From: a virus
IMG/VR virus record: IMGVR_UViG_3300032297_000372
Span: 27,614 to 91,613 of that record
Length of the DNA stretch: 64,000 nt
Direction: 5' to 3' (one strand)
Within the stretch, counting starts at the first letter, position 1. Every line of letters begins with the position of its first letter. Shown here in pieces: positions 29,376 to 45,600 of this stretch. The notes below the pieces were generated by a model. It was not told the origin of the DNA. It saw only the letters and a list, made by a program, of their open reading frames with translations, and did no database searches. The position numbers and the translations under genes were made by a program.

Positions 29376-29376
29376 T

Positions 29377-29607
29377 ATGAGAGTTAGAGTAGAAGGTACA
29401 CACTTCGTTAAAGACACCAAGACAACCGCACTGTTAGCTACTAACCGTGCGGTTTTGGCCGAGAATGAAGCTAGAAAAAAATTAGGTGAGAGAATAACTG
29501 GTAAAAATGAAGAGATAAATAGTTTAAAATCTCAAGTTAATACCTTAACTGAAGATATGTCCGAAATAAAAAAGATGTTACAGATTCTCTTAGAAAAGAA
29601 CAATTAA
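29377..29607 (+). CDS. Small coiled-coil hypothetical protein downstream of vrlC
   Basis: The ATG at 29377, just after the vrlC stop, is more plausible than the TTG at 29356. C-terminal heptads EINSLKSQVNTLTEDMSEIKKMLQILL. Confidence 0.7.
   Translation: MRVRVEGTHFVKDTKTTALLATNRAVLAENEARKKLGERITGKNEEINSLKSQVNTLTEDMSEIKKMLQILLEKNN
29514..29521 (+). promoter_or_regulatory. Late promoter-like GATAAATA inside the small ORF
   Basis: About 95 nt upstream of the tail fibre gene at 29617. Confidence 0.45.
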
Positions 29608-29616
29608 AGGTTTAAG

Positions 29617-32600
29617 ATGCCAATTTCACAAATCGAAAATATAACAAGAACTAATACCATTGATGAATGGAGAATACAGACTAATAAATCTGCCTCTGAT
29701 TTAAATGATCTTGGTTTTTCATCATATGATAAAACGCAAGGTACTTTGATTATATCAAATACTGCGTCATTACGAATTACTGCATCAGGAACTCCTTTTG
29801 AGGTTGTTAATAGTGTTCTCTTTCAGAATAATCTATCGTTAGCAAATAACTTTTATCTAGGTACTGTAGGCACTCCAACAGGTAATGCTATTATTGGTGG
29901 TACAGTAAGTATTGGTGGTTCAGGTGCAACTTCATTAAATGTCGCTAATGGTGTAACTGTTGGTACAGATTTAGCGGTAACTAGAAATATTTCTGCATCA
30001 AACGCTGCTTTTAGTAATCACATAACAGTAGCAAACAACATAACAGCCTCAGGCATTCTTCGTTTACCTGGAACGGTTGCAGAAAAAGGAAATGTAATAT
30101 ATGCAAATTCTGGTTCAGCTTATATTAATACAGTTTTTGCATCAACAATTAATTCAGCAAACGTAGCTTCAGATAACGTAAGAGCATTGCAAGCAACCTT
30201 TGACGTTCTGAACCTTATTGGTTTAGGCACAATGTTAAATTTGCAGGTTTTCAATGATGCGTTCTTAGTTGATATTATTGCTACAGGTAACAGTTATTTT
30301 GATGTTGCTAATGTTCGTTCATTAACAGTTAACTCTTCAGCAAACATAGTAACATTATCTTCGAATACTTCTACGATTAATAACGCAATCTTAGGAAATG
30401 CCACTGTAACACGAGCTAACGTCACAAACATGACGGTAGACCAAACAGGTAATGTTGTAACTTTAATTTCGAATCTATCATTAATCAATACTGCAAATAT
30501 TTTAATAACAAATGCAAACGTTGGTAATATTCGTAACTTTAGTTTAGGTACTGGTAGTATTACAACAGCTGCAATAGAAAATCAAACTTTCAATGTTGCC
30601 GTTGGTAACACAAGCACAATACAATCAGCAAACATTGTTACATTACAATCTAATCAAGCGACAATCAATACTGGTAATGTAACAAGAATCTTTGCTTCTA
30701 ATGCAAATGTAAGTACAGTAAACGTTTCCTCATTAGTAGATGTTACTACTGGTGGTTTAGTTAGAGTTGCTGCTGGTGCTTCTCCAGAAACAACTGTATT
30801 GCAAGTTGCAGGTAAAACTAACTTAGCTAACGTAGTTATTGACGGCAATTTAACTGTATCGGGTGCGTTCACACAAACCGGAACTGTAAACTTCCAGATT
30901 CAGTCTTTCTTATTGAATGCAAATACGGCTACAAATCTTGATGCTTCGATTATTAATAAGAGAGCTCTAGGTGATAATGCTATTATTAATTGGGACGAAT
31001 CTGTAGATCAGTGGAAGATTTCTACAGGTAATACATACTCACAATTAAACAGAATACTCGATGCTGGTCAATTATCATCACAAGTAACTAATACAAGTAT
31101 TACTGATGTCGCAACTCCTGCTGCGGTTAACACAGTACATACGATTTCTATTACTGCAAGTCATTATGCCAATGCAGCATTCTTACAAGCAAATACTCCT
31201 AGTCACGTATCGAATAGTGCGTCTAGTTATGCTAACTCTGCATTCTTGCAAGCGAATACTCCGAGTCATGTATCTAACTCTGCGGCACTCTATGCTAACG
31301 CAGCCTTTATAGTTGCAAACACACCAACTCATGTGGCAAATTCTGCTGCTTTATATGCTAATGCGGCATTTATCGTTGCGAATACACCAAGTCATGTTGC
31401 CAATAGTGCAGGTTTCTATGCTAACGGTGCATTTGTAAAGGCTAATACCGCAGATATCAATGCTAATGCAGCTTCATCATACGCTAATGCGGCATTCACT
31501 CAAGCTAACTCTGCATTCGTATCAGCAACTAACGCTCAACTTGCCGCAGATGCCGCACAAGGAACAGGTTCAGCATCTTACGTTTTAGCAAATACAACTA
31601 CCAATACCGCTTTAGCAGGATTTGCAGTTGCCAACTCCGCAGCACTTTATGCTAATTCAGCTTTCTTGAGAGCTAATAATTCATTGTTAAGTTCTGGCGG
31701 AACAATGACTGGTGATTTAACCATGTCAGGTAGTAACTCGATCAATGCATCAAGAGCTAACATTGCTTTTGATTTATTAGGTGTTAGAACAGGTGCATCT
31801 GGTGCTAGAATTGTGATGAACTATGACATCATTCAATCTGCTGATCCATTGTTCAGAGCATCACTTGTTGTGGATAGAGGTGTAAGTCCTAACGTTGAGA
31901 TTCGTTGGAATGAACCTACAGCAAAATGGCAGTTCACGAATGATGGTTCTACTTACACCGACTTTGGTGGTAGTACCGCACCTGCCGTTGCCGGAGGTAC
32001 AAATAGACAGATTCTAGTACAGACTGGTGTAGGTGCAACAGGTTTCATTGATGCTCCTTCAACTGCTAATAGATACTTACAATGGACAGGATCAGCATTT
32101 ACTTGGGCTGAGGTACCTAGTGCAGACTTAACTGAACTGAGTGCAAGTAATCTAACATCTGGTACTATACCTGCGGCTAGAATGCCGGCAACTGGTTCTT
32201 TTGGATTTAATATTACAGGTAGCGCAGGTTCAGCATTGACTGCTGCAACAGCAACAACTGCTACAACAGCAGTCAATGCCACAAATGCAGTAAACATTTC
32301 TGGTGGTAATGTACAAAATGCTTTAGCCTTTACAGTGTTAGGTACTCCAAGTATCGGTGACGGAACATCAACATTCTATAATAGACTTTATATTAGAGAT
32401 GGCGGCACAACAACAAGTAAAACTGATCCTTCAGATACAGCAGCATTAAAAGTTTTAGGTGATATAGCTGTCTCTACTGATGTTTGGGCAACTTTGTTTA
32501 ATGGTACCGCAACATCAGCTCGATATGCTGACTTAGCAGAAAAATATTTACCTGATGCGGATTATCCTGAAGGTACTGTAATGGCCATAGGTGGTGAAAA

Positions 32601-32877
32601 AGAAGTTACTGCCGCTTCTGATGTTGACTTCAGAGCTATAGGTGTGATATCATTGAAACCTGCATTTAGAATGAATGAAAATCTAGAGAACGGTGTTTAT
32701 GTTGCACTGAAAGGTCGAGTGCCTGTACGAGTAAAAGGTGAAATCAAAAAAGGTCAACCTATTGGCACAAGTGATACTTTAGGTGTAGGTAAACTTAATG
32801 CACGTAATCATTTTGCTATTGCATTAGAAACAAAAACAACTGAAGAAGAAGGTGTAATAGAAGCATTAATTCTTTAA
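29617..32877 (+). CDS. Tail fibre protein with C-terminal intramolecular chaperone (peptidase G2/IMC-like autocleavage domain)
   Basis: N-terminal TNTIDEWRIQTN, beta-rich Asn/Thr repeats and YANAAF heptad repeats. The C-terminus reads ARYADLAEKY...GVIS.KPAF.MN...VALKGRVPVRV.G.I.KG. Confidence 0.78.
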   Translation: MPISQIENITRTNTIDEWRIQTNKSASDLNDLGFSSYDKTQGTLIISNTASLRITASGTPFEVVNSVLFQNNLSLANNFYLGTVGTPTGNAIIGGTVSIGGSGATSLNVANGVTVGTDLAVTRNISASNAAFSNHITVANNITASGILRLPGTVAEKGNVIYANSGSAYINTVFASTINSANVASDNVRALQATFDVLNLIGLGTMLNLQVFNDAFLVDIIATGNSYFDVANVRSLTVNSSANIVTLSSNTSTINNAILGNATVTRANVTNMTVDQTGNVVTLISNLSLINTANILITNANVGNIRNFSLGTGSITTAAIENQTFNVAVGNTSTIQSANIVTLQSNQATINTGNVTRIFASNANVSTVNVSSLVDVTTGGLVRVAAGASPETTVLQVAGKTNLANVVIDGNLTVSGAFTQTGTVNFQIQSFLLNANTATNLDASIINKRALGDNAIINWDESVDQWKISTGNTYSQLNRILDAGQLSSQVTNTSITDVATPAAVNTVHTISITASHYANAAFLQANTPSHVSNSASSYANSAFLQANTPSHVSNSAALYANAAFIVANTPTHVANSAALYANAAFIVANTPSHVANSAGFYANGAFVKANTADINANAASSYANAAFTQANSAFVSATNAQLAADAAQGTGSASYVLANTTTNTALAGFAVANSAALYANSAFLRANNSLLSSGGTMTGDLTMSGSNSINASRANIAFDLLGVRTGASGARIVMNYDIIQSADPLFRASLVVDRGVSPNVEIRWNEPTAKWQFTNDGSTYTDFGGSTAPAVAGGTNRQILVQTGVGATGFIDAPSTANRYLQWTGSAFTWAEVPSADLTELSASNLTSGTIPAARMPATGSFGFNITGSAGSALTAATATTATTAVNATNAVNISGGNVQNALAFTVLGTPSIGDGTSTFYNRLYIRDGGTTTSKTDPSDTAALKVLGDIAVSTDVWATLFNGTATSARYADLAEKYLPDADYPEGTVMAIGGEKEVTAASDVDFRAIGVISLKPAFRMNENLENGVYVALKGRVPVRVKGEIKKGQPIGTSDTLGVGKLNARNHFAIALETKTTEEEGVIEALIL

Positions 32878-32878
32878 T

Positions 32879-33352
32879 ATGATAACTATTGATGAGTTTG
32901 AGAATTTTATACAACATGATTTGGTATATGAACAAAAGTTAATTTCTATACTGGATGACCTAGGTCGACAAATTTATATTGATGATCTAGGTCAACTTCA
33001 TTCCAACTACGGTAAAACCGTAAAAGTTGAGGGTATGGAAAAATATAATGCACAAATATATGACACATGTTGTGAATTGCAATACGTATATAATCATAAT
33101 GGTGTCGTGACTTGTCATGCTTTCAGAGCTTATGAAAATTCTGCAAGTTTTGGAACTCATACTGATCCTGATGATGTTTATATACACGTTATTTGGGGAG
33201 AAAAAACTCTTCAAATAAAAGATGAAATTCACATATATCGTTCTGGTGAAAGTGTATTCATACCTTCTAATACCCCACACAAAGCTATAAACGAAAAAGA
33301 ATCTTTAATATTAAGCTTTGGTCTTGAAAAATTTCTAGTAGATAAATTATGA
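32879..33352 (+). CDS. JmjC/cupin_4-like Fe(II)/2OG oxygenase
   Basis: SFGTHTDPDDVYIHVIWGEK...GESVFIPSNTPHKA supplies the HxD...H triad and the Lys typical of JmjC/ROX cupins. Confidence 0.72.
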   Translation: MITIDEFENFIQHDLVYEQKLISILDDLGRQIYIDDLGQLHSNYGKTVKVEGMEKYNAQIYDTCCELQYVYNHNGVVTCHAFRAYENSASFGTHTDPDDVYIHVIWGEKTLQIKDEIHIYRSGESVFIPSNTPHKAINEKESLILSFGLEKFLVDKL

Positions 33353-34407
33353 ATTGGATGTTTTATTTAAAGACCACTGAAACATGTAATTTAAATTGTA
33401 AACATTGTTTCACTAATGGCATTAATGGTCCTAAAATTTTCTGGAATGCCATAAAGATTACTGATTGGATTAAACGTTTCAGAGCATATTACCCATCTAA
33501 TTCTGATTCTATACATTGTGAATTTCACGGTGGTGAGCCGTTTTTAGTTCCTGTTCATGAAATGCGTCATGTGTGGGAAAATTGTAAAGACTTGTGGCCT
33601 GCCATGACTTGGGGAGCAACAACGAATTTAGTATTTAAGATGGATCAAGAACATTATGATTTTATAGAAGAAGCTTTCGATAATAGAATAGGAACTTCTT
33701 GGGATCCTAAAATTAGATTTGCCAATAATAAACAATATAAACTTTGGCATAGTAATGTTAAAAGCCTATTGAATCGTGGCGTAACTGTAAAACTTTTTAT
33801 AAGTGTAACACAAGATACATTAAATATAGAACCCATAGTATTGTTACGTTGGATTCGTAGGTTAGGTGTACAAGAAGTTTCGTTTGAGAGATTAACTCAG
33901 AATGGTAACGCTAAAAAATATCCTGAAATATTTCCTAACAATATTGAACAAGATAACTGGTTTCTAAAATTATACGAACAATCTGAGAAATATGGTGCCA
34001 GAGAATGGTTCGATAATGAATTTTTAGAAGTAATTTATTCAAAATTTGATACCGGATTCTTGAAAGGTGGAACTTTCTGTAGAGATTGTGAAGAAAAGAT
34101 ATTCACTGTAAATGCTGACGGTACATTATCAGGATGCCCAAATTCTGCTCCAGAATTTCAATTTGGACATATAAATGATAATCTGGAAGATGTTATAAAT
34201 AGTGAAAGAAGAATAGAAAATATATCATGTGAACGTAGTAGAGATCCTAGATGTTTTTCATGTGATGTGTTTGAATATTGTGGTGGAGACTGTCATCAAT
34301 TAGAATGGCAAAATGATGTTTGTGGAGCTCCAAAAAGTTTAATGAGATATTTAAAAAATAAACAAAAAAATAAAGTTTGGATATTAAAAAATGGCAACCT
34401 TAACTAA
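33349..34407 (+). CDS. Radical SAM/SPASM domain protein (rSAM-1)
   Basis: CNLNCKHC (CxxxCxxC), FHGGEP, and SPASM-like C..C..NADGTLSGCP...CFSCDVFEYCGGDC...C. Confidence 0.92.
   Translation: MNWMFYLKTTETCNLNCKHCFTNGINGPKIFWNAIKITDWIKRFRAYYPSNSDSIHCEFHGGEPFLVPVHEMRHVWENCKDLWPAMTWGATTNLVFKMDQEHYDFIEEAFDNRIGTSWDPKIRFANNKQYKLWHSNVKSLLNRGVTVKLFISVTQDTLNIEPIVLLRWIRRLGVQEVSFERLTQNGNAKKYPEIFPNNIEQDNWFLKLYEQSEKYGAREWFDNEFLEVIYSKFDTGFLKGGTFCRDCEEKIFTVNADGTLSGCPNSAPEFQFGHINDNLEDVINSERRIENISCERSRDPRCFSCDVFEYCGGDCHQLEWQNDVCGAPKSLMRYLKNKQKNKVWILKNGNLN
34194..34201 (+). promoter_or_regulatory. Perfect T4 late promoter TATAAATA inside rSAM-1, upstream of the 181-aa gene
   Basis: Exact consensus about 190 nt upstream of the ATG at 34391. 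Confidence 0.55.
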
Positions 34408-34936
34408 TAATATTAACCCTCAAAATATCGTTGATAGATTTGCTGATTATGTGACAGCCACAGCTAGTGCAGGAATTACATGGGGAACTAATGCTAAACC
34501 CTTTAGTCAATTTGATGCGGGTTATCTTGGAGGAACAACCGCAGGTAGACCTATTGGTATATCAGGTGGAAATATTTCTGCTGTTGGTGGAACAATCACA
34601 GCTTCAGCAATTTACAACACTCTAGTTAATGAAACCGCACAATATACTTCTATTAGAAGTTTAAGAGCTATTCTACATTTAACCGGATCAGGCAACCAGT
34701 TCGATCAAACAGCTATTGCTTATATGAGTTATGGATCGTATGGGCAGAGTATTGGTTCACCAGCAAATGCTGGCGTCTCAGCAGGATCGACAATAACTAG
34801 TAGTGGTTTAGAATCGCTTTTTAATAATTTAAGATCATCGTATAATACTGCAAGAGCAGCCACAACTACGATAACTGTTACTGTTTGTCACACATCGTGT
34901 CATTCATCCTGCCACGGTTCTAGAGGAAGAAGATAA
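34391..34936 (+). CDS. Putative virion/fibre-tip protein with C-terminal (CHxS)3-RGRR motif; candidate substrate of the radical SAM cluster
   Basis: The body is rich in Gly/Ser/Thr/Ala/Asn like the structural proteins. All three Cys lie in the terminal CHTSCHSSCHGSRGRR (34886-34933). The substrate role is inference. Confidence 0.6.
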   Translation: MATLTNNINPQNIVDRFADYVTATASAGITWGTNAKPFSQFDAGYLGGTTAGRPIGISGGNISAVGGTITASAIYNTLVNETAQYTSIRSLRAILHLTGSGNQFDQTAIAYMSYGSYGQSIGSPANAGVSAGSTITSSGLESLFNNLRSSYNTARAATTTITVTVCHTSCHSSCHGSRGRR

Positions 34937-35652
34937 TGAATATTGTTGAAACTACTGCACCCATCTCGATTGAAAATTTAAAAAAATATTTTAATGACCA
35001 GACTACTTTTTTTGTTATTGATTATAAAGACAGTAGTTTAAAAGGAACAAAACTATTAACATATCTTTCGAATTTAGATATACCTTCTGACATAAACTTT
35101 ACAGGTTGTTCTAGTGATGAATGTTTTGATATGATTAAAGAATACCTACATTCTACAATGATTGTTAATATTCCTGCACTTGAGTCGGCAGTTATCAATA
35201 TATTACATCAAACTAAAAATTTAGTTCCAGTAACAGATAAAAAATTTATTGACGATAATAAAGAAATTTTAGATAAGTGGATTTCAAAACTAGAAAGTTT
35301 ATCCCTATTCAATATGCATATTATTGGAAACGGAATGTTCAAAGAATTTGTTTCTGAGTTTGAAGTCGATGCATCAACTGAATTGATCGGTGTTAATTTT
35401 ATTAGTTTATTAAAGAATGAACATTTTTATTCTTTCTATAATAATACCGATAAAAAATCATTAAAGTTTTATACACATTATTTTAATGATTACATGTTCA
35501 AAGGTAAAAATATGTATTCATATTGGGCTAATGAGAATAATCCTTTATTTTTATTGACATACGGTATTTCAGAAGGCCTTGTAGAAGGAAATTCTTATAA
35601 CTCATACAAACAAAAAACAATCGAGGAATTAGAAAATGTTACACCTGTTTAA
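34936..35652 (+). CDS. Hypothetical protein (radical SAM cluster accessory)
   Basis: 238-aa ORF with a TAATG overlap with the 181-aa gene. No recognised motif. Confidence 0.65.
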   Translation: MNIVETTAPISIENLKKYFNDQTTFFVIDYKDSSLKGTKLLTYLSNLDIPSDINFTGCSSDECFDMIKEYLHSTMIVNIPALESAVINILHQTKNLVPVTDKKFIDDNKEILDKWISKLESLSLFNMHIIGNGMFKEFVSEFEVDASTELIGVNFISLLKNEHFYSFYNNTDKKSLKFYTHYFNDYMFKGKNMYSYWANENNPLFLLTYGISEGLVEGNSYNSYKQKTIEELENVTPV

Positions 35653-36730
35653 TAAAGTTTACTTAGAGTTCGATGATAGAATAGAAAATCATCTAGATCG
35701 AGTTGTTATTTCAGAACAATACGGAGATCAAATGTATGATCTTTTGGAAAAAGCTGTTCTTGGAAAATTAATACTATATGGTAAAAGTTTCGAAGAAGTT
35801 GTTGGTGACGACTTTTTAGGATTCATAAAATCAATAAAAGAATATGGTGATAACTCTGGTAAAAAAATCATTATTTTCTGTGATAGAACTTCATACAAAA
35901 AATTTATGGCTCATTGGTTTAGATCAACATTACCTAATTTAGATTATGACGGATTTAAAACTATTGTAGATCATACGATTTATAATCAACGAATAATTTC
36001 GAATACCCAACTATCTTCAATGTTCAGTGTTAATCTAAATTCACTATGGGAAGATTTGGATGATATCGAATCTGCGTGGGCAAACGCACAATCTGTAAAT
36101 AGAACCTCGTTGAAATCTTTGAATTTAAATCATACATATGAATTTTTATTATCAACTTATTTGTCTGGTGATAATTCACATAAAGAAGCCTTGAAAAAAA
36201 CATTGCACATGTTTTTACGCCGTTGGTTTATAGAAATGTTTGTTGACAATCGACAAATGGTTTTATTGAATCTTAATAACCATAAATTCTTAAGCACATT
36301 TAATATTGATCCTAAATTGATAGATTTAACTCGTTTAGATCCTTTAGATGTAATAGAACAATTTGAATCTTACTCCGATGATGAAATATGGGAGAGAGAT
36401 GAGAATGCTTATGGTAAATGTAAATTGGAAGGTTTGAGTGAAGAAAAATGTCTAAAGTTGATGGACACTTTATATAATGTTTTTGAAAAATTTGAGGGTA
36501 TGCAAATCGACCGTAGTGTTTTTGGAATTAGAAAATATGTTACTTTAACAACTCGTGAAAGTATAACAGATGCTGAGATGGATGACATATTGGATTTTGT
36601 TATCAATAATCCTTTCGACACTTCTCTAGTTCCACGTGTTGATTTTCAAAATGTTAATTTCACTTTAGTGCAATATTTTCTGACTCAAAAATACAATAAA
36701 AAAGATATATCGAAATATAGATTGTTGTAA
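35636..36730 (+). CDS. Hypothetical protein (radical SAM cluster accessory)
   Basis: 364-aa ORF overlapping the previous stop, with a GAGGA Shine-Dalgarno upstream. No confident family. Confidence 0.65.
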   Translation: MLHLFNKVYLEFDDRIENHLDRVVISEQYGDQMYDLLEKAVLGKLILYGKSFEEVVGDDFLGFIKSIKEYGDNSGKKIIIFCDRTSYKKFMAHWFRSTLPNLDYDGFKTIVDHTIYNQRIISNTQLSSMFSVNLNSLWEDLDDIESAWANAQSVNRTSLKSLNLNHTYEFLLSTYLSGDNSHKEALKKTLHMFLRRWFIEMFVDNRQMVLLNLNNHKFLSTFNIDPKLIDLTRLDPLDVIEQFESYSDDEIWERDENAYGKCKLEGLSEEKCLKLMDTLYNVFEKFEGMQIDRSVFGIRKYVTLTTRESITDAEMDDILDFVINNPFDTSLVPRVDFQNVNFTLVQYFLTQKYNKKDISKYRLL

Positions 36731-36731
36731 A

Positions 36732-37784
36732 ATGCGTGATTTTATTATTGAACGTAAACGTGATATTGAACAAGAATATACTTTACATCTTTTTGAATAT
36801 TGTAATTTAAGATGTTCTTTTTGTTGGCAAGACCATGAAAATACAATTGGAATTGATACTGTAATTGAAAAATTAATTCCAATTGAAAAATTCTTACAAA
36901 CAGAAACTCGCCATTCAGTAATATTTAATGTTATGGGTGGTGAGGTTTTTGCTCCAAAAATATTCAATACCGATCTACTCAATGCCTATAAAGAATTAAT
37001 ATCAGGCATAAAACAACTTGAAGGTAAATACAATAAAAAGATAAAGTTAAATTGGGTTACTAATTTAGTTACCGATAAGATCGATCTTATAGAGTCTCTT
37101 TTATCTTTTTCAGAATCGGTCAAGCTTGAATCTAATCTCGTAACATCTTACGACCCTCGTGGCAGGTTTAATGTTAATGACTTCTTAACGTTTAAGAAGA
37201 ATATGGAATACTTTGGTAAACGTATTACATGCATAAGTATGTTGTTGAGTTCGCCTAATATAGATTACATACTTAAAGATAGAGACAATTATTTCAAAAA
37301 GTTGTATAATGAAGGTTATTACATATATTTTGATTACTATATGCCTGACGAATCTGCGGAGTTTCAATCACCTACAGATCAACAACTGAGAGATGTTTTT
37401 AGACATTTTATTGATAATTATCCCAATGTATATCCTATTAAAGATTGGATACAAAATGAAACTAATTATGCATCATGTAGAACGAGTAAATTAATACTTG
37501 CAGACGGAACGATGTGTAATTGTGGTAATTTAGTACAAGATGAAAAAGTTATAAAATTTTATTCATCTAAAATACAAAAAATGGATAACTCAGAAATTGA
37601 AAATAATTTCTTAGAAAAATATGATTGTGTTTCGTGTGAGTATCTAGATAGATGTAGTTTTGGTTGTTTCATGCAACATGATTATAAATTTAGGGAAGAA
37701 CTTGATGAGTGTGTCTATAAACTTACGCACAGATACATCGATGATGTTAGATTACAACGAGGAAGAAAAGCCTCTATCGGTTGA
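36732..37784 (+). CDS. Radical SAM/SPASM domain protein (rSAM-2)
   Basis: CNLRCSFC, MGGEV, and C-terminal SCRTSK..ADGTMCNC...CVSCEYLDRCSFGC...C. Confidence 0.9.
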   Translation: MRDFIIERKRDIEQEYTLHLFEYCNLRCSFCWQDHENTIGIDTVIEKLIPIEKFLQTETRHSVIFNVMGGEVFAPKIFNTDLLNAYKELISGIKQLEGKYNKKIKLNWVTNLVTDKIDLIESLLSFSESVKLESNLVTSYDPRGRFNVNDFLTFKKNMEYFGKRITCISMLLSSPNIDYILKDRDNYFKKLYNEGYYIYFDYYMPDESAEFQSPTDQQLRDVFRHFIDNYPNVYPIKDWIQNETNYASCRTSKLILADGTMCNCGNLVQDEKVIKFYSSKIQKMDNSEIENNFLEKYDCVSCEYLDRCSFGCFMQHDYKFREELDECVYKLTHRYIDDVRLQRGRKASIG

Positions 37785-38280
37785 TGTACCTAAACATATT
37801 GAAGTTTCGTTAGATACTGTACCAATTGCATATCCTTATTTGCCACGATTATGTGGTAGGCAAGGATATGTTTTTATGTGGCATACTACACGTGACGTGG
37901 AACCAGATTTATATGATTTATCACAAAGTGTAAAAGATGAAGAACAGTGGTTTACTACTAAGGATCCAAACGGTATCGAAAAAGTTTTATCTCTTGTACA
38001 TGAATATGATGATGAAGTCGTTATTGGTTGTGTAAAATCCGCAGGTTATTTAAAACACAAGCCTAACGAATATATCAATAAACTAATAAAGAGTGCCTGG
38101 AAAGATTTAATATCTATATTCGGTCATAAGAGAATTATTTGTCCTAGCGGTTCGTATTTACAGTATGTGCATTTGTGTCTTAACCAGAAAAAAATACCTC
38201 ACACACCATATTCCAAAAAGTTAATGATGAGAAATAAATTTTATAGAGATGGTTACTATTGGATTCGAGACGGTCGTTAA
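37741..38280 (+). CDS. Hypothetical protein (radical SAM cluster accessory)
   Basis: The ORF track starts it at 37660. The in-frame ATG at 37741/37744 gives a smaller overlap with rSAM-2. Its stop overlaps the next ATG (TAATG). Confidence 0.6.
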   Translation: MMLDYNEEEKPLSVDVPKHIEVSLDTVPIAYPYLPRLCGRQGYVFMWHTTRDVEPDLYDLSQSVKDEEQWFTTKDPNGIEKVLSLVHEYDDEVVIGCVKSAGYLKHKPNEYINKLIKSAWKDLISIFGHKRIICPSGSYLQYVHLCLNQKKIPHTPYSKKLMMRNKFYRDGYYWIRDGR

Positions 38281-38717
38281 TGATATTACATAATATTCTC
38301 ACAAATGAAGAGTGTAAATTTATATTGAATATTTTAATAGACAAATATCCAGAGCTATTACATTCGAATAATCATATTGAAACAGAAGATGAATCTTTAA
38401 ATTTCATCACAATGATACCTAAAAGTCATGTTGAAAATTTAGGCAATCCTTTGTGCCTTGTACTATTAAGTACTGTTAATGATAGAAGTGATTATGCAGG
38501 AAAAGAATGGCATGTGGATGGTGATCCTGATGAGACAAGTGTAATTTTATATTTAAATGGTAATAATGAAAGTGGTGGAGAATTTGTAACCGAAACGGAT
38601 AAGTATAAATTCGATATTGGATCGATGATAGTTCTTCGTTCTGATAAACTACATAAAGTAGAACCTTACAATAATGATAATGCAAGGATCGCTATAAAAT
38701 GGAAATTTAAATCATAG
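38280..38717 (+). CDS. 2OG-Fe(II) oxygenase (prolyl-4-hydroxylase-like)
   Basis: WHVD...SVILYLN...GGEF...LHKVEP.....RIAI shows the HxD...H...R pattern. The start is moved to the ATG at 38280. Confidence 0.82.
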   Translation: MILHNILTNEECKFILNILIDKYPELLHSNNHIETEDESLNFITMIPKSHVENLGNPLCLVLLSTVNDRSDYAGKEWHVDGDPDETSVILYLNGNNESGGEFVTETDKYKFDIGSMIVLRSDKLHKVEPYNNDNARIAIKWKFKS

Positions 38718-39743
38718 ATGGATTTGATAATTAAGCCTACCGAAAGGTGTAATTTTAAATGCACTTTTTGTTCGAGTACAAATATAACTGAAGATAAGTC
38801 TATGGAGTTAGACTTAAATTATATCTATGAATTCTTAAAACGTTTTCCCGAAACCAATACTATAATTGTTAATGGCGGCGATCCATTAATGATGGATCCT
38901 CAATACTATTGGGATTTAATCAAACACCTGGATGAGATTGGTTCACATTCTACCATCTCTTTCACCAGTAATCTTTGGCCATTTTATAAAAATCCTAACA
39001 AATGGAAAGACTTATTTAATCATCCACGAATGGGAGTGACCACATCTTTTCAGTATGGTGGAGGTAGATTGAAAGGTGATCTATCTGAATTTACTGAAGA
39101 AGATTTTTGGAAATGTAGTAATGCGATGTTAGAACATTGTGGTTATAGGCCAGATTTTATTAGTGTTATCACTGAAGAGAATGAACATCAAGCTATCAAG
39201 AATGTAGAACTTGCTAAACGCATGAGTGTTGAATGCAAACTTAACTATGCAATGAGTAGTGGTCCCCCAGTTAAATTTAAAGGCATCATAATGGGACAAC
39301 AAGGTAAACCATATTTGCTAGCAAACATCTATGAAATATATGTTGAGATATGGAAAAAAGGATTATATCCTTGGGAATTTAACACTAAACAGATGATGAA
39401 ACGATTGAAGGGTATGAGTACTTGTTGCCCTCAAAATAGAGAATGTGATGGTGGAATTAGAACATTACAACCATCAGGAGATTATTATTCTTGTGGAGCC
39501 TTTGGAGATGATAAACAATTTCCTATAAATTTTAAACAAGAAATGAATGGGTCTAAAATTTTCCCTATCCGTTCTATTCAAGAATTACAAACCATGACAG
39601 ATGACTGTTATACTTGTCCTATGTTTGAGATATGTAACGGTTGTAAAAAAACTATTAAAGACCATAAAGATTATGGTTTGGCAGAAACCCATTGCCGTAA
39701 AATGAAAACACTATCAAATGATATTATACAATCTAATCAATAA
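38718..39743 (+). CDS. Radical SAM/SPASM domain protein (rSAM-3)
   Basis: IKPTERCNFKCTFC, NGGDP, and CCPQNREC...PSGDYYSC...CYTCPMFEICNGC...HC. Confidence 0.92.
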   Translation: MDLIIKPTERCNFKCTFCSSTNITEDKSMELDLNYIYEFLKRFPETNTIIVNGGDPLMMDPQYYWDLIKHLDEIGSHSTISFTSNLWPFYKNPNKWKDLFNHPRMGVTTSFQYGGGRLKGDLSEFTEEDFWKCSNAMLEHCGYRPDFISVITEENEHQAIKNVELAKRMSVECKLNYAMSSGPPVKFKGIIMGQQGKPYLLANIYEIYVEIWKKGLYPWEFNTKQMMKRLKGMSTCCPQNRECDGGIRTLQPSGDYYSCGAFGDDKQFPINFKQEMNGSKIFPIRSIQELQTMTDDCYTCPMFEICNGCKKTIKDHKDYGLAETHCRKMKTLSNDIIQSNQ

Positions 39744-40236
39744 AGGATATTATCTTTGTAGAGATAATGAACCATTTCAATTTATAGATATCAACACGAT
39801 TGAATGGACAGATAAAGGTACTATACCATTAAGAATGGTTAAAAGAACTGAGTATGTAGAACAAATACTTTCAACTACACAAAAATTTCTGGCTGAGAAA
39901 TATGTTCGACCGATATTTGGTGATTATCACATGGACTATTGCGATCTTGTCAATGGTATGGATGATAATGTTTATGAGTGGCATAATGATTATGAGGAAG
40001 GCAAAGTAAATCTTGGTATACTTTTGTACTTCTCAGATACAGATGAAGAAATCGGTAGCGGTATCGGATTTAGAAATCCTGAAACCAAAATAGAACATGA
40101 CTTTTTTTATCCAAAATCTGGTGATGTATGTTTTCTAAATCATACCACCAAATTCGAACATAGAGTAACTAAACAAAAAATACCAATTCCTAGAATAGTA
40201 GCAAGTTTCCATTATCATGTTGACTCTCTCAATTAA
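39718..40236 (+). CDS. 2OG-Fe(II) oxygenase
   Basis: WHND...LLYFSD...YPKSGDVCFLN...FEHRV......RIVASF. Confidence 0.8.
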   Translation: MILYNLINKGYYLCRDNEPFQFIDINTIEWTDKGTIPLRMVKRTEYVEQILSTTQKFLAEKYVRPIFGDYHMDYCDLVNGMDDNVYEWHNDYEEGKVNLGILLYFSDTDEEIGSGIGFRNPETKIEHDFFYPKSGDVCFLNHTTKFEHRVTKQKIPIPRIVASFHYHVDSLN

Positions 40237-41146
40237 TCCTTGGTATTACTGTAACTATAGATGTGAATTTTGTTACTTAACCGAAGAACAATTATCAGAT
40301 AAAAAATTACTTGATCTTGATCGTTTATCTGAAATGCTTGCGGAAGTTTCTTCACAGTCTAAAATTATGATGGTCGATCTGTATGGTGGAGAATTAGGTT
40401 TACTTCCGAAAGATTATTGGAATTCTTTGATCGACTTACTACACATTTACGGTATATACGATATCAACCTAATAACAAATCTTTCGATGGTTAATGATAT
40501 TACCACAGATGAAAGAGTTTATACCTCGGTCAGTTTTGATTTTGAAGCACGTGAAGACTACCAAAGGGTTTGGCGAAATATGGCCATGTTGAATAAACCT
40601 TTTTCGATTTTGATGTTAGCTTCTCCGAATCTTATTATTAAAGACGTTGGTGAAATGATACAGACTCTTAACGTTCTTAAAAATTTAGAATCTGTTGAAA
40701 TTAAACCCTACAGTACTAATCAGAGTAATCAATTAAACATTAAATACAGTGAATATGAATCTTTTGTGCAAAAGTGGATTACTTATTCTGATAAAAACTT
40801 TTCATTTACAAATGAACTATTGATCGAATCTGTTCTTGATAAAACTCGAAACAGTTTTTCTGACGATCACATTTACATTACTCCAGAAGGTAAATACGGT
40901 GTTTTAGAGTTCGATCTAAATGATAATGAATTCTTTTTGGAATACGATACGTTAGACGAATATTGGCAATGGTGTGAAAAGGAAAAGCATAGAGTTGGGT
41001 TGAATAAATATTGTTCGAATTGCGATTATTACGGTAATTGTTTATCTGAACATTTACGTGAAGTGAAATCGTTGGATGAAAGTTGTAATGGATTTAAAAA
41101 CCTTATAGATTGGTATAAGAATGATCGATTCGGAATGGAAAATTAG
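40217..41146 (+). CDS. Radical SAM protein with atypical auxiliary-cluster domain (rSAM-4)
   Basis: CNYRCEFC, LYGGE, ITNLS, and C-terminal CSNCDYYGNCLSEH...SC. Confidence 0.88.
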   Translation: MLTLSINPWYYCNYRCEFCYLTEEQLSDKKLLDLDRLSEMLAEVSSQSKIMMVDLYGGELGLLPKDYWNSLIDLLHIYGIYDINLITNLSMVNDITTDERVYTSVSFDFEAREDYQRVWRNMAMLNKPFSILMLASPNLIIKDVGEMIQTLNVLKNLESVEIKPYSTNQSNQLNIKYSEYESFVQKWITYSDKNFSFTNELLIESVLDKTRNSFSDDHIYITPEGKYGVLEFDLNDNEFFLEYDTLDEYWQWCEKEKHRVGLNKYCSNCDYYGNCLSEHLREVKSLDESCNGFKNLIDWYKNDRFGMEN

Positions 41147-41537
41147 ACAAGAAATATTTCATCGATTAAACACAAATCATGATGATGATTTAAAATTACA
41201 TCATGTTGTTATTGATGAAGATATCATTCAATCTTCTATAAAATATTTTACAACCACAGAATTGGGGTGGGTATATCCAGCAAAAAGTTATGTTGTCGGT
41301 ATATGTTATGCGAGATGGATTAGTCATTATTTTCAAGAAAGTTTTTATGAGGTCTTAGATGACCCTTCATTATTATATAATAATGATCCTTATTTTGTGC
41401 CTTATAAAGACGATAAATATACTTATGATTGTATAATATCTCAGATAGGTCTAGACTTTGACGAATCGTGTGGTATTATACCAGATATTAAAAGTTATTT
41501 TTTGAAAGAGTTTCAATTAGATGAATCATGGGTTTAA
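41121..41537 (+). CDS. Hypothetical protein (radical SAM cluster accessory)
   Basis: 138-aa ORF overlapping both neighbours, with segments YPAKSYVVGICYA and LLYNNDPYFVPY. Confidence 0.62.
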   Translation: MIDSEWKIRQEIFHRLNTNHDDDLKLHHVVIDEDIIQSSIKYFTTTELGWVYPAKSYVVGICYARWISHYFQESFYEVLDDPSLLYNNDPYFVPYKDDKYTYDCIISQIGLDFDESCGIIPDIKSYFLKEFQLDESWV

Positions 41538-42096
41538 TGACTTTTGGCCAACTACTTTTTATCAGGGTAAAATAGAAGATGATAAAATTTTAGAAGACTT
41601 GGCTAATGAATTTTTTTCTATAAGAAACTTTGACCAAGATTATTCTGAGAAGAATAGTTTTAATTTATTCGACCTAAAGACAGACTCAATTTTAAAATTT
41701 AAAAATGATATAGTTTATCCTGCGTTTAAACTATACCTGAGTAAAGTTTTTAATCAAAATATAGATGATTTTGGTTACAAGATGAAGTCTTGGTTTAACC
41801 AGTCTAGTCTACCTAGTCATAATCATTCTGGCGCACATTTAAGTGCAGTTTTTTATATTTTGTGTAGTAACCGAATAGATGAAGGAAATATCATATTCAC
41901 GGATCCTAGAAGCAATTCGAATCGTGGATACCCGTTGAGTTTTCAAAATATTTTTGAGCCGGTAGTATATCAACCGGTGATGGGAGACTTTATAGTCTTT
42001 CCTAGTTTTGTGTATCATTATGTTAGTGCTTGTTCGTCAACTCATAGATTATGTGTCCCAGTAGATTTATTTTTAGAAAATAAAAAGGTAAAATAG
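41521..42096 (+). CDS. Putative 2OG-Fe(II) oxygenase (TIGR02466/2OG-FeII_Oxy_5-like)
   Basis: SWFN...HNHSGAHLSAVFY...GNIIFTDPR...GDFIVFPSFVYHYV......RLCV. Confidence 0.82.
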   Translation: MNHGFNDFWPTTFYQGKIEDDKILEDLANEFFSIRNFDQDYSEKNSFNLFDLKTDSILKFKNDIVYPAFKLYLSKVFNQNIDDFGYKMKSWFNQSSLPSHNHSGAHLSAVFYILCSNRIDEGNIIFTDPRSNSNRGYPLSFQNIFEPVVYQPVMGDFIVFPSFVYHYVSACSSTHRLCVPVDLFLENKKVK

Positions 42097-42137: not shown

Positions 42138-42470
42138 GTGGCTGAATTTGTAGAACTGACATTAGAACAAGGTGCGACTTTTAATACTGTTATCACGGTA
42201 AGTGATGGTACTGGAGTTAGTCAAAATCTATCTGGATATACTGCCAGATCACAAATGCGTAAATCGTATTATTCTTCCACTAAACAAGACTTCACAGTTT
42301 CAGTTACATCACCTGGCAGTGGCGAAATCACCATGTCTATGAGTGCTGCTAACACCGCAAATTTAACCGCAGGAAGATACGTATATGATGTAGAGATAGA
42401 TAATGGAGCAGGTGCTATAACTCGAATATTTGAAGGTATTATAACAGTATTACCTAATGTCACGAGATAA
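42138..42470 (+). CDS. Small virion structural protein (BppU/collar-like fibre adaptor)
   Basis: LEQGATF..LSGYTARSQMRKSY...TANLTAGRYVYDVEI...RIFEGIITV.P.VT is a common small structural protein of T4-like phages. Confidence 0.7.
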   Translation: MAEFVELTLEQGATFNTVITVSDGTGVSQNLSGYTARSQMRKSYYSSTKQDFTVSVTSPGSGEITMSMSAANTANLTAGRYVYDVEIDNGAGAITRIFEGIITVLPNVTR

Positions 42471-42473
42471 AAA

Positions 42474-42677
42474 ATGCCAATACAAATTCAAGTAAAACCT
42501 CAAAAGACAACAGTTGCATCGGTCACTGTTGCACAGACAGCAAATCTTGCAATGCAACAGATATCAAATGTTGTAGTTCCTAACAATATAGCTGATGGAT
42601 TTGTTTTAACCTACGAAGCTTCCTCTGGTAAGTTCGTATTTAAAAACGTCCCTCCTGTAACTGGCGGATCTTTCTAA
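42474..42677 (+). CDS. Small hypothetical structural protein
   Basis: 67 aa, containing DGFVLTYEASSGKF and ending in GGSF. Tightly packed between its neighbours. Confidence 0.6.
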   Translation: MPIQIQVKPQKTTVASVTVAQTANLAMQQISNVVVPNNIADGFVLTYEASSGKFVFKNVPPVTGGSF

Positions 42678-42678
42678 C

Positions 42679-45600
42679 GTGGCTACCTCATTAGTAATAA
42701 AATATTCCGTAGCGAATAACGCTCCTGCGGCCGGCAGTTTGTTTGCAGGTGAACAGGCATATTCGTTTGTTTCTGATGTATTGTTTATAGGACATCCAGA
42801 TGGTTCTGTACAGAACACTGGTGGTTATTACTACACTCAGATTATAGATTCTAGAACAACTCAAGCAATTCCAAATACACTAGTACTAAGAACAGCACAA
42901 GGTAATATTGTAGCTAATAGTTTTGTTGGTACAGTTACAGGTAGTCTTTTCGGAACTGCAAATGCGGCTAGAGTATTAGCAAACACCATCACAATGACTT
43001 TGACTGGCGATGCAAATGCCAGAATAACAACCAATGGGTCAGGTAATAACAGTTACGTATTAACATTGAATACGACTGGAGTTGTAGCAGGAACATACGG
43101 TGGTGCATCTAACATTCCTGTGTTTACAGTCGATGAAAAAGGACGTTTAACTCAGGTAGCAAATGCTGCTATTTCAGTTGCAAGTGAAGCTTATACTATT
43201 AGTGCTTATAGTACTGCAAATAATGCTTTTCATAAGGCAAATGCTGCGTTTGAAGCTGCCAATGCAGCAACACCACAATTTGCTCAAGGTGCATATAATA
43301 CTGCTAATGCGGCTTTTATAGCCGCAAATACTCCAAGTCACGTTGCGAATTCATCAGCAGTATATGCTAATGGTGCATTTGCAGCTGCTAATAATGCAAA
43401 CGCAAGATCAATAAGTGCAGGTATATACGCTAATGCGGCATTTGCATTGGCAAATTCTTTTGGTGGTACAACCGATGCATTAGCTAGAACTCGTGCAAAT
43501 GCTTCTTTTGAACAAGCCAATGGAGCAAGTCAATATGCAAATTCGGCATTCAATCAAGCAAACATAGCATATTCATTAGCCAATTCAGTTTATGCACCAA
43601 CACTAGCAGCACTCGAAACTGTAAACCTACTTGCATCAAATCAAGCAAATATTTCTTTCAATACGGCATCGGTTAGTGCTAATGCTTCTGGTGCGTTTGA
43701 TAAGGCAAATGCAGCCTTTGCGGTTGCGAATACAAAGTTTAATACAACTGGTGGTACAATTACAGGTAACATGGTTGTTGCTGGTAATCTAACGGTCAGT
43801 GGAAATATAACGTATGTAAACACCAATGAGTTAAACATTGGTGATAATATCATTACACTCAATGCAGATTTACCAACATCGACTGCACCAACACAAGATT
43901 CTGGTATAGAAGTTAATCGTGGTAGTTCTGCAAATGTGGCATTTAAATGGAGTGAATCTGCACAGAAATGGCAGTACACAACCGATGGTACAGTTTATAA
44001 CAACGTTGCTTCTGAACTAGCAGGAATATATGCTAATGCAGCATTCGCCAAGGCTAATACTGCAATCTCTGATGCTGCTATTGCTGCTGGCGCAGCTGCA
44101 GCTGCCGAAGCTTTAGTTTCTACTGTTGATGGTAAGTTAAATGTATTAGATGCTAAAGCAAATACAATTTTTGTACGTGCAAATACTCCAAGTGGTACTG
44201 CAAACTCAGCTGCAATATATGCTAATGCTGCTTTTGATAAAGCAAACTTAGCCGATCCTATTAGAATTAATTTAGCATTTAACTCTGCAAATGCTTCTTT
44301 TGATACTGCTAACCTTGCATTATCTACAGCAAGAAATTCTTCTAATGTTGCTAATGCTGCGAGTGATGCAGCAAACAATGTTACTAATGCATATAATCAA
44401 GCAAATGCTGCCTTTAATACAGCTAACACGGCAAGAAGTATTGCTCTAGCGGCATTCGGAAAAGCAAACTCAGTTATTGATTTTGCAAACGGAAATACGG
44501 CATTAAATGTTGCGAATGATGCAAGTTCAACCGCCAATCTAGCTATTAATTTGGCAAGTTATGCTGCTAATACTGTAAATAGTGCTTTAGGTGGAACTGG
44601 TTTAACCTCATATGCAGCCAATACAGCTAATGCTGCCTTTGCTGCGGCAAACGGAAAACTATCATTAACTGGTGGTACAATCACTGGTGATTTGCGAGTT
44701 GACGGTAATGTAACTTTTAATGGTTCATCCGCAACACTTGATGTATCTACATTAAGAATTCGAGACGATCAAATTGATTTAGCTTATAATCAATCGGGTG
44801 TACCAACACAAAATGTAGGATTTAGAGTTATACGTGGAGATGAACCTCCTGTACAATTACGATGGAATGAATCTGATAATCAGTGGGAATTTACTAACGA
44901 TGGTATAACATTTAATGCTTTAGGTTCTGGTATTGCTGTTGCCGCTAATACAGCTAATGCATCTTTCATTACTGCTAATTCTGCTACCATATATGCTAAT
45001 GCTGCTTTCGTAACATCTAATTCAGCAGCAGTCTATGCTAATAGTTCTTTTATCACTGCTAATTCAGCCGCAATATATTCTAATGCCGCCTTTGAAGCAG
45101 CCAATTCAGCAGCAACTTATTCTAACTCTTCATTTGCAGTATCTAATTCAGCTGCAATATACGCCAATAGTTCTTTTAGTGTATCTAATTCTGCTGCGAT
45201 ATATTCTAATGCTGCTTTCATAGCATCTAATTCAGCATCAGTATATGCTAATGCCGCATTCGCAGCTGCAAACGGTAAGTTTAGTAGTTCAGGTGGAACA
45301 GTAACGGGTAATGTAATTATTACTGGAGACTTAGGTCTTGTTTCTAACACTATACTATTAAACTCTGATTTAGATTCTTTGGCTATTCCATTCGAAGATT
45401 CTGGAATTAAAGTCAACCGTGGCACTGCAATAAATGTAGCTTTACTGTGGAATGAAACTGTAGATTCTTGGCAACTTACCGATGATGGTGTTAACTATGC
45501 GAACATAGCATTAGAATCTGCTGATGTATATTCAAATGCTGCATATTTAACGGCTAATGCGAGTTTCTTACAAGCAAATGCATCTTTCTTTCACGCAAAT

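Follow-up and report, generated by a model that had tools for sequence, protein, structure and literature searches.

The 64,000-nt window analysed here (the whole stretch of DNA, part of a 91.6-kb IMG/VR viral contig whose completeness is estimated at about 52%) contains a cassette of thirteen open reading frames (ORFs), g1 to g13, at positions 32879-42096. The cassette takes up about 9 kb of the genome, lies entirely on the + strand, and encodes four radical S-adenosylmethionine (SAM) enzymes, one cupin/JmjC protein, three 2-oxoglutarate (2OG)-type oxygenases, four proteins without a family, and a 181-aa protein, g3, that ends in a short Cys-His tail (Table 1). Adjacent ORFs overlap by 1-44 nt or are separated by gaps of 0-1 nt, and the first begins 1 nt past the stop codon of a 1086-aa fibre ORF (29617-32877). 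These coordinates bear out the description of thirteen co-oriented, tightly packed genes 1 nt behind a fibre stop codon in an earlier, sequence-only reading of this DNA. Two further statements of that reading hold: four of the genes, g4, g5, g7 and g12, match no Pfam or NCBIfam family, and searches of the 13 proteins against Pfam and NCBIfam found no protease and no exporter or transporter domain. Its placement of the cassette end just before the next late promoter fares less well, with only a CTAAATA-like near match after position 42096.

The surrounding window carries the structural module of a T4-like myovirus, with baseplate tube cap, hub and wedge proteins (one of 4146 aa), several fibre-like giants, and a large terminase. 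Because this terminase shares only about 54% identity with its counterparts in pelagiphage HTVC008M and marine cyanophages, the source is taken to be an uncultured marine T4-like phage. A megablast search of the cassette against 50,697 phage records returned no match.

Table 1. Features of the cassette and of the region upstream, with late-promoter-like sites in the window.
Feature	Position	Strand	Description
Fibre-like protein	29617..32877	+	1086 aa; last ~130 aa a putative Peptidase_G2-type autoproteolytic chaperone domain by family profile
g1	32879..33352	+	157 aa; cupin/JmjC-like Fe(II) oxygenase; core member
g2	33349..34407	+	352 aa; radical SAM/SPASM enzyme A; always adjoins the tail protein
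g3	34391..34936	+	181 aa; Cys-His-tailed; proposed substrate and virion component
g3 tail CHTSCHSSCHGSRGRR	34886..34933	+	three C-H-x-S units and RGRR, stop codon directly after
g4	34936..35652	+	238 aa; no family; universal partner of the tail protein
g5	35636..36730	+	364 aa; no Pfam or NCBIfam match; in nearly all cassettes
g6	36732..37784	+	350 aa; radical SAM/SPASM-like enzyme B
g7	37741..38280	+	~179 aa from the likely ATG at 37741 (read from the sequence); no family; accessory
g8	38280..38717	+	~145 aa from the likely ATG at 38280 (TAATG start overlap); 2OG-Fe(II) oxygenase; accessory
g9	38718..39743	+	341 aa; radical SAM/SPASM-like enzyme C; most conserved gene of the set
g10	39718..40236	+	172 aa; probable 2OG-Fe(II) oxygenase; accessory
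g11	40217..41146	+	309 aa; radical SAM enzyme D; twitch-like, reduced auxiliary Cys set
g12	41121..41537	+	138 aa; no family; core member
g13	41521..42096	+	191 aa; 2OG-Fe(II) oxygenase
ATAAATA sites	469, 6884, 21842, 29515, 34195, 41004, 41413, 49964, 52578, 58610, 60698, 62442	+	sequence pattern
ATAAATA	29515..29521	+	upstream of the fibre gene; late-promoter-like
ATAAATA within TATAAATA	34195..34201	+	inside g2, 190 nt before g3

The Cys-His tail

The protein g3 matches no NCBIfam or Pfam family, and its tblastn search against the 50,697 phage records found no match, because the bodies of the tail proteins diverge too fast. Homologues were found instead by gene position and by a degenerate DNA pattern for the tail. 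The proteins RSL2 ORF068 and Atu_ph07 gp170, for example, cannot be aligned to g3 by BLAST, yet their last 16 residues agree with those of g3 everywhere except at the "x" positions. The DNA pattern identifies at least 120 IMG/VR loci, against a chance expectation estimated well below one. Among the matches listed, the stop codon follows the tail directly in 149 of 149 copies, in proteins of 124-309 aa. An alignment of 56 homologues, 21-79% identical, has no invariant columns other than the C, H and S of the three tail repeats and the three closing R residues. Among the 166 distinct 48-nt versions of the tail, every codon available for Cys (two), His (two), Ser (six) and Arg (six) is used; selection therefore acts on the peptide and not on the DNA.

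A profile search with g3 returned at least 1132 homologous protein clusters, all of them unnamed and none with a Pfam domain. The bodies fall into two main families, one of about 190 aa, to which g3 belongs, and one of about 128 aa, often encoded as tandem pairs, together with several small families. When profiles of the two main families are compared, the tail and about 50 residues preceding it align, and this stretch before the tail could be a shared recognition element.

An AlphaFold2 model of g3 (pLDDT 91, pTM 0.83) shows a compact alpha/beta body at residues 1-166, followed by the tail at a pLDDT of about 55; the tail is presumably flexible. The sequence-only reading had called g3 structural-looking, and the model, a compact alpha/beta domain and not a fibre, contradicts this. 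With no match to a fibre or adhesin fold, a fibre-like or gp38-adhesin-like fold was rejected. The body has no PDB match among solved structures (best Foldseek E-value 0.43; best Z-score 3.8 in a wide VIA-align search), and matches in BFVD are restricted to its own uncharacterised phage family, which includes Atu_ph07 gp170.

Co-occurrence of tail protein and enzymes

Profiles constructed from the 13 window proteins were used to label all ORFs in the collected loci. At least one radical SAM-like ORF occurs in 96 of the 102 motif-seeded viral loci with enough flanking sequence, and g4 in 65 of the 66 with enough downstream DNA; motif-seeded loci with at least 8 kb downstream contain 3-8 radical SAM-like ORFs. 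A test independent of the tail motif was seeded with g9, which has at least 304 relatives in IMG/VR, and used the 62 loci with at least 6.5 kb upstream. An ORF ending in (CHxx)3RxRR-stop lies 3.4-8.4 kb upstream of g9 in 59 of these 62 loci, 41 with the strict motif and 18 with N, Q or A at position 4 of the repeat. The three others comprise one locus truncated at a contig end, one whose genes are ordered differently and extend beyond the locus, and a locus designated L183. The co-occurrence of the radical SAM set with a CHxS-tailed protein, raised in the sequence-only reading, is thus found in 59 of 62 loci, and radical SAM clusters without such a protein are rare (one to three of 62), so that the refuting condition which that reading set for such clusters is not borne out.

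Since 18 of the 62 g9-seeded loci have N, Q or A at position 4, the invariant part of the tail is (C-H-x-x)x3-R-x-R-R, with Ser usual and not obligatory. The enzyme content of the variant loci is unchanged relative to that of Ser loci. The family signature is accordingly a near-invariant (C-H-x-S/N/Q/A)x3-R-x-R-R-stop, carried on variable bodies.

The share of each component was counted in 40 g9-seeded loci of at least 18 kb. The families of g4, g6, and the g11-type radical SAM enzymes are present in 100% of complete loci, g2 and g5 each in 96-100%, g12 in 93-100%, g1 in about 92%, and g13 in about 90%, while g8 (36-50%) and g7 (7-31%) are less frequent. The core set is the tail protein, g4, the cupin protein, the four radical SAM lineages, and g12.

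Cultured phages carry the same set. The genes g9 and g4 occur together in the same 15 of the 50,697 phage records, which include 12 cultured jumbo phages with hosts in Ralstonia, Burkholderia, Agrobacterium, Sinorhizobium and Pseudomonas; g9 is 57-64% identical in the 12. Phages RSL2 and Atu_ph07 encode one-to-one counterparts of g1, g2, g4, g6, g9, g11 and g12 at 28-62% identity, for example 40% for g1 in RSL2, and 47-54% for g11 and 40-43% for g12 in RSL2 and Atu_ph07. The radical SAM genes of CP220-like Campylobacter phages, mentioned in the sequence-only reading as another case of multiple radical SAM genes in T4-like phages, are absent from the g9 and g4 matches in these records and were dropped as candidate relatives. 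The kit recurs in hundreds of phages and, as described below, in some predatory bacteria.

Several observations concern individual carriers. The fourth radical SAM gene of Atu_ph07, gp164 (L002:9080-9994), labelled hypothetical, seems to be annotated too short: residues 1-306 of g11 align at 54% identity to L002:9080-9991, and the annotated coding sequence begins at 9281. RSL2 ORF073 (L001:6822-7358), which lies inside the cassette at the position of an accessory gene of the window, is annotated "dihydrofolate reductase", as are genes in the FLC phages and SURPRISE13. Some contigs, among them L047, L062, L107 and L028, have tandem genes for tail proteins of about 128 aa with a divergent radical SAM set, plus a second, window-type block of g1, g2/g9, two copies of g11, g12 and g6. 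Because both enzyme blocks are combined on some contigs, one phage can carry two versions of the kit.

Radical SAM enzymes, oxygenases, and helper proteins

All four radical SAM proteins contain the CX3CX2C motif, at residues 13-20 of g2, 24-31 of g6, 11-18 of g9, and 12-19 of g11. The sequence-only reading had attributed C-terminal Cys clusters to all four as well. Such clusters are present in g2, which has the full seven-Cys SPASM pattern, in g6 (CX2CX5CX3C), and in g9 (a variant SPASM pattern); g11 has fewer, with just five C-terminal Cys residues (C253, C266, C269, C275 and C290). The SPASM model TIGR04085 scores above its cutoff of 27 for g2 only (36.1 bits), with g9 (23.3) and g6 (20.6) below it, and the Pfam Radical_SAM model exceeds its cutoff of 29.5 for g9 only (36.0).

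The best named NCBIfam matches of g2 are PapB, DynA, anSME, YhhB and the SPASM domain, with every named maturase far below its cutoff; those of g9 are DynA, MoaA and HxsC, all likewise far below curated cutoffs. Searched as single sequences against the PDB, g2 and g9 found no match. The g2 family profile matches CteB (5wgg) and other peptide maturases, with SuiB among the named relatives, and that of the g9 family gives a full-length alignment with anSME (4k36-39) at an E-value of 1.3e-6. Because the best named relatives and profile matches are peptide or protein maturases, all below cutoffs, the comparisons place g2, g6, g9 and g11 within the peptide- and protein-modifying SPASM/twitch clade, outside its named families.

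The claim of four oxygenases with HxD/H...H triads stands, less fully for g10 and g13. An HxD motif is present in g1, where HTD at 94-96 and H134 are candidate iron ligands, in g8 (H85-x-D87 plus H132), and in g10 (H89-x-D91); none was found in g13 by regular expression for HxD/E. By family models, g1 matches Cupin_2 (39.1 bits, 6.3e-10; cutoff 27.2) and JmjC_2 (27.9 bits, 1.8e-6; cutoff 22), g8 matches 2OG-FeII_Oxy_3 (28.0 bits; cutoff 27), and g13 matches 2OG-FeII_Oxy_5 (44.7 bits, 1.9e-11; cutoff 27), whereas g10 reaches only 23.2 bits for 2OG-FeII_Oxy_3, under the cutoff of 27.

The remaining proteins match no family. A confident AlphaFold2 model of g4 (pLDDT 88.8) gave only a generic 58-residue beta-alpha-beta match (Z 5.0) in fold searches, with no known fold, and profiles of g3 and g4 found no match among PDB sequences. 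Prediction of a g3-g4 complex from two alignments (A1 and A2) returned a score of 0.00, which counts neither for nor against binding. Protein Atlas gave a weak, sub-threshold lead to DUF6138 for g5 (0.89) and a sub-threshold lead to DUF3806 for g12 (0.87-0.88).

The upstream fibre and late-promoter sites

The 1086-aa protein encoded directly in front of g1 has a PHROG tail fibre match at residues 946-1057. In 74 loci, the protein encoded immediately before the cassette, invariably on the same strand, has the same C-terminal domain and ranges in length from 194 to 2824 aa. Pfam model PF11962 is matched by 41 of 46 aligned family members (best E-value 9.6e-9), and by the C-terminus of the window fibre itself at an E-value of 0.024 (14.5 bits, below the cutoff of 25). 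The family profile also matches the chaperone domains of phi29 gp12 and Dpo31 (3gqh, 6qz9, 3suc, 28nb). From these matches, the domain of the family is identified as a Peptidase_G2 intramolecular chaperone (IMC), putatively self-cleaving, with the window copy a candidate member.

Of the 64 phage loci with at least 3 kb of upstream sequence, 49 have a G2-type fibre gene as the immediate same-strand neighbour in front of the cassette. The association spans both tail-body families, and a G2-domain fibre is also found a few genes upstream of the Atu_ph07 cluster. The fibre link is frequent, not universal. The description of the cassette as lying inside a tail fibre module therefore suits those 49 loci, but not RSL2-type phages or bacterial chromosomes, where the G2-type fibre is missing.

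The heptamer ATAAATA is the core of the T4-type late promoter. It occurs 12 times in the window, always on the + strand, against 40.7 occurrences expected on both strands, a strong depletion, and most sites fall 10-35 nt before gene starts, where T4-type late promoters would be expected. The site at 29515 may drive both the fibre gene and the cassette. Three sites lie inside the cassette (34195, 41004 and 41413). The first belongs to the longer pattern TATAAATA, found at 2 sites in the 64 kb against 11.6 expected, and is possibly an extra late promoter for g3. Operon structure and ATAAATA sites together make late co-expression of the cassette with the fibre plausible.

Bacterial chromosomes

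A search for the tail pattern in prokaryotic assemblies returned some phage contigs binned into metagenome-assembled genomes and six chance matches that are not C-terminal. About a dozen further matches belong to Bdellovibrionota, from Halobacteriovoraceae, Bacteriovoracaceae and Pseudobdellovibrionaceae, and one to a Flavobacteriaceae genome; several are located on contigs of 0.2-1.3 Mb. A 1.29-Mb Halobacteriovoraceae contig encodes the full set, with g1, g2, the tail protein, g4, g5, g6, g10, two g11-type enzymes, g12 and g13. This cluster is not a prophage; the genes on either side have housekeeping roles (acyl-CoA dehydrogenase, serine dehydratase, YchF, an Mrp/NUBPL ATPase, PBP1 and a lytic transglycosylase). 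The sequence-only reading had treated the kit as phage-encoded; taken to mean phages only, this is incorrect, with the core set also present in chromosomes of Bdellovibrio-like predators.

Adjoining the Halobacteriovoraceae cluster is a gene for a 413-aa protein (L156:12168-13406, - strand) with a C-terminal Peptidase_S74 intramolecular chaperone domain. In each of the three other genomes examined (L158, L161 and L163), homologues are encoded no more than a few kb from the cluster, and together the proteins span 336-413 aa. We read the N-terminus of these proteins as hydrophobic and prepilin-like, and the combination of this feature with the S74 domain of the 413-aa protein looks like a pilus-anchored fibre.

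Among 301 sampled Bdellovibrionota genomes, 11 encode g4. A quick maximum-likelihood tree of g4, computed on 68 rows after dropping every second viral row and rooted at the midpoint, places the 11 cellular copies in one group (SH-aLRT 91) nested among viral rows near Atu_ph07, a topology that fits one transfer between phages and cells, in either direction.

A suggestion made in genome papers is that these are auxiliary metabolic genes, which would lie in a structural region by chance. Annotations and comments in published genomes favour it, and both 2OG oxygenases and radical SAM enzymes do occur in nucleotide-modification pathways. The closest named relatives found here, however, are peptide and protein maturases, not nucleic-acid enzymes; the genes are packed tightly behind a fibre gene, strictly linked to the tailed protein, and frequently linked to fibre genes; and the same set adjoins fibre-like proteins in bacterial chromosomes. 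An auxiliary metabolic role is the explanation least compatible with the data, and we consider it very improbable.

Virion proteomics of Atu_ph07

Purified particles of Atu_ph07 have been analysed by gel-slice electrospray ionization tandem mass spectrometry (Attai et al. 2018, PMC6102473). Table S5 of that study lists Gp170, a hypothetical protein of 31.89 kDa, with 8 unique peptides and 35.16% coverage, in fragments 1-9 with its peak in fragment 1 (PMC6102473). The computed mass of translated gp170, the homologue of g3, is also 31.89 kDa; because the two masses agree, the gp170 numbering matches. The enzymes and helpers encoded nearby, gp165, gp168, gp169, gp171 and gp172, are not in the virion table (PMC6102473). 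The sequence-only reading had held that the enzymes modify a virion protein rather than serve metabolism, and three results now support it: tail proteins co-occur with radical SAM enzymes, 49 of 64 phage loci have the fibre context, and gp170 is found in virions without the enzymes.

The gel position of gp170 is unusual. It peaks together with proteins of 76-139 kDa, whereas fragments 7-13 contain the peaks of other proteins of 25-35 kDa with at least 3 peptides; gp321 and gp616, both poorly supported, likewise peak in fragment 1 (PMC6102473). That gp170 migrates well above its expected position despite boiling in SDS is consistent with an SDS-stable oligomer or a covalent conjugate. The G2-domain fibre gp176, of 66.07 kDa and with 14 peptides, peaks in fragment 4 among proteins of 50-56 kDa, whereas Atu_ph07 proteins of 61-77 kDa peak in fragments 2-3 (PMC6102473). 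This position fits a gp176 that has lost a chaperone domain of about 14 kDa. The papers on SURPRISE13 and pPa_SNUABM_DT01 report no virion proteomics.

Presence in virions also helps to judge whether the cassette is a true ribosomally made and post-translationally modified peptide (RiPP) pathway, in which the g3 body would be a long leader and the modified 16-residue tail would be cut off and released during infection as a toxin, metallophore or signal. Such a pathway would be suited by the pairing of a conserved core with a variable body resembling a leader, and also by the SPASM maturases and the roughly 50 pre-tail residues common to the body families, which resemble a recognition sequence. 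Yet neither the 13 genes nor the conserved core include a protease or exporter, the body is modelled with confidence as a folded domain of 165 residues that is conserved within families, and the whole protein, at 35% coverage, is present in Atu_ph07 virions. Release of the tail as a free product appears to us improbable.

A proposed maturation pathway

We consider it probable that the kit carries out a RiPP-like maturation of the flexible tail of a virion protein that is itself probably fibre-associated. Late transcription would cover the cassette jointly with the preceding fibre gene. The four radical SAM lineages would each abstract hydrogen from tail residues and install a modification, most likely thioether or other cross-links of the three Cys residues and the neighbouring His residues, while the cupin/JmjC protein and the variable 2OG oxygenases would add oxidative tailoring, such as hydroxylation of His or Arg. 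The helpers g4, g5 and g12 would serve as recognition or scaffold partners and may read the approximately 50 residues before the tail. The tail would not be freed as a peptide; the matured protein would instead be built into the virion, where the Atu_ph07 homologue is found, and would probably associate with the fibre after the C-terminal chaperone domain of the fibre cleaves itself. We infer, then, that the tail is the substrate of the enzymes, that g3 of the window phage is a fibre-associated virion protein, and that the modification consists of Cys/His-centred cross-links and oxidative tailoring. Adhesion, metal binding and a covalent staple are possible roles of the tail on the virion. The cross-linking, hydroxylation, metal binding, fibre-tip position and late timing put forward in the sequence-only reading are predictions.

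A different account of the tail is that its three Cys and three His residues form an unmodified metal or iron-sulfur site, with the enzymes acting on the fibre, another virion protein or a small molecule, and with the tailed protein serving as a structural component or as an electron donor to the radical SAM enzymes. Metal binding by Cys/His repeats is classical, position 4 of the repeat tolerates N, Q or A while the C-H dyads are strictly invariant, radical SAM enzymes require a reductant, and phage fibres such as T4 gp37 bind metal ions through His motifs. An electron donor would hardly be expected as a well-covered virion protein when the enzymes themselves are absent from virions. Moreover, the tail is predicted to be disordered, with no preformed site, and this account leaves unexplained why 3-8 SPASM-type maturases, whose relatives act on peptides and proteins, track the tail so closely. 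We regard an unmodified metal site as unlikely.

Several points weigh against tail maturation itself. The pairing of oxygen-sensitive radical SAM enzymes with 2OG oxygenases, which require O2, is awkward, and the modification of tail residues is a prediction. The Ser at repeat position 4 can be replaced by N, Q or A with no change in the enzymes, and is therefore not an obligatory reaction site. Locus L183 encodes g2 and then g4, seemingly without a tail gene. A G2-type fibre is missing from 15 of the 64 phage loci (the RSL2/RSF1 type and several other groups) and from all bacterial loci. Presence in virions was observed for one distant homologue, which is not BLAST-alignable to g3 (fold match E-value 5.7e-6), and not for the window phage. 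Finally, the Atu_ph07 study gave no C-terminal peptide of gp170 (PMC6102473).

A bolder extension can be drawn, which we think rather doubtful: that phages of several unrelated lineages and Bdellovibrio-like predators share a radical SAM pathway that would turn the Cys-His tail into a covalent structure, a cross-linked metal- or redox-active "warhead" or a staple, on a cell-attack fibre after chaperone self-cleavage. If true, this would be the first enzymatic radical SAM hypermodification of a virus-particle protein, and a tool common to viral and bacterial predators for binding or breaching Gram-negative envelopes.

Relationship to known systems

The closest system in concept is HXS (TIGR03976-03979), of which the cassette is not a member. 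In the HXS antiphage system, HxsA carries HxS repeats and gains +8 Da on an SHRSS motif when matured by the radical SAM enzymes HxsB and HxsC with the small partner HxsD (Li et al., Nat Commun 2026, PMC13128918). Both systems have a folded protein, not a short peptide, with short repeats that contain His-x-Ser; both combine more than one radical SAM enzyme with non-enzymatic partner proteins; and the mature HXS protein, too, acts outside the cytoplasm in the contest between phage and host. Echoes in scores are weak and an order of magnitude under the family cutoffs, 27.6 for g2 to TIGR03978 (HxsB; cutoff 370) and 31.2 for g9 to TIGR03977 (HxsC; cutoff 267.9), and neither a match to HxsD among g4, g5, g7 and g12 nor a peptidoglycan-binding domain was found. 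In contrast to the tandem, contiguous His-Xaa-Ser repeats of HxsA, an effector that also undergoes N-terminal processing, the cassette repeats are C-H-x-S with invariant Cys, number exactly three, and sit at the extreme C-terminus before RxRR. The cassette has at least four radical SAM enzymes plus cupin and 2OG oxygenases, and is carried by the attacker, a phage or predatory bacterium, with its protein ending up in the virion.

Like anSME (PDB 4K36-39) and QhpD, the cassette enzymes are minimal radical SAM plus SPASM proteins with no fused recognition domain, paired with a protein as proposed substrate, and the residues targeted by anSME are Cys or Ser. The g2 score to TIGR03942 (40.5) is nevertheless far below the cutoff of 349, the tail lacks a C/S-x-P/A-x-R motif, and four paralogous enzymes are encoded where anSME works alone; the alignment of g9 with anSME indicates a shared clade, not membership. 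PapB, which acts on C-x-x-x-D/E, and the CXXX-repeat system resemble the cassette in their repeated, Cys-led units of four residues, and the tail is formally CXXX three times over. PapB and CteB are SPASM enzymes that bond the sulfur of Cys to a side chain close by. Among named families, g2 matches PapB NF047865 best, at 51.4 bits against a cutoff of 340 (TIGR04115, 23.7 against 350). The tail has no acidic acceptor of the kind in PapB substrates, and in contrast to ranthipeptides and SCIFF, the proposed substrate is a folded protein of 18-32 kDa that is kept in the virion, with neither leader protease nor exporter. Classical RiPP systems, similarly, have a short precursor with a leader, a leader protease, usually an exporter, and a released product, whereas here the precursor would be a folded 181-aa protein whose homologue is retained in virions.

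On the fibre side, the upstream protein ends in the same kind of chaperone domain as the phi29 pre-neck appendage gp12 and the Dpo31 tailspikes; we know of no radical SAM cassette or Cys-His-tailed partner described with proteins of either type. The literature found on the carrier jumbo phages provides gene lists that neither mention the tail motif nor assign a function. The maturation of phage structural proteins is generally held to proceed by folding, proteolysis and assembly. The kind of system is thus known, namely radical SAM/SPASM maturation of a ribosomally made protein, whereas a virion protein as its apparent target is unprecedented in the literature found.

If the proposed pathway is correct, a conserved set of four to nine radical SAM enzymes would serve a single virion protein and so give the particle a new layer of enzymatic covalent chemistry based on radicals. 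With at least 1132 protein clusters of tail proteins and at least 304 radical SAM relatives in IMG/VR, the family is large, and it is ecologically wide, from marine T4-like phages to soil jumbo phages of plant pathogens, and its sharing with predatory bacteria points to a function in attacking Gram-negative cells. The tail would offer a compact, near-fixed substrate for several uncharacterised SPASM enzymes, for which new enzymology is likely. Cultured carriers, including Atu_ph07, RSL2/RSF1, the FLC phages, SURPRISE13, Phosso and pPa_SNUABM_DT01, make the question testable.

Neighbouring genes

Two small ORFs follow the cassette (42138-42677), encoding proteins of 110 and 67 aa, the first with a weak match to an LtfC-like beta-sandwich (E-value 0.0099). 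L180 and L188 are among the other loci where a pair of similar size, about 110 and 73-76 aa, separates the cassette from the following giant fibre gene. On the upstream side, an ORF of about 80 aa (29356-29607) lies between the genes for the 2055-aa and 1086-aa fibre proteins. Many related loci have an ORF of 72-88 aa in a like position, giving the order giant ORF, ORF of about 80 aa, IMC fibre, cassette. The three giant structural ORFs of the window are at 9375-21815 (4146 aa), 23208-29375 (2055 aa) and 42679-49044 (2121 aa), and the protein encoded by the last consists of many short, Ala/Asn-rich repeats resembling ANxAF.

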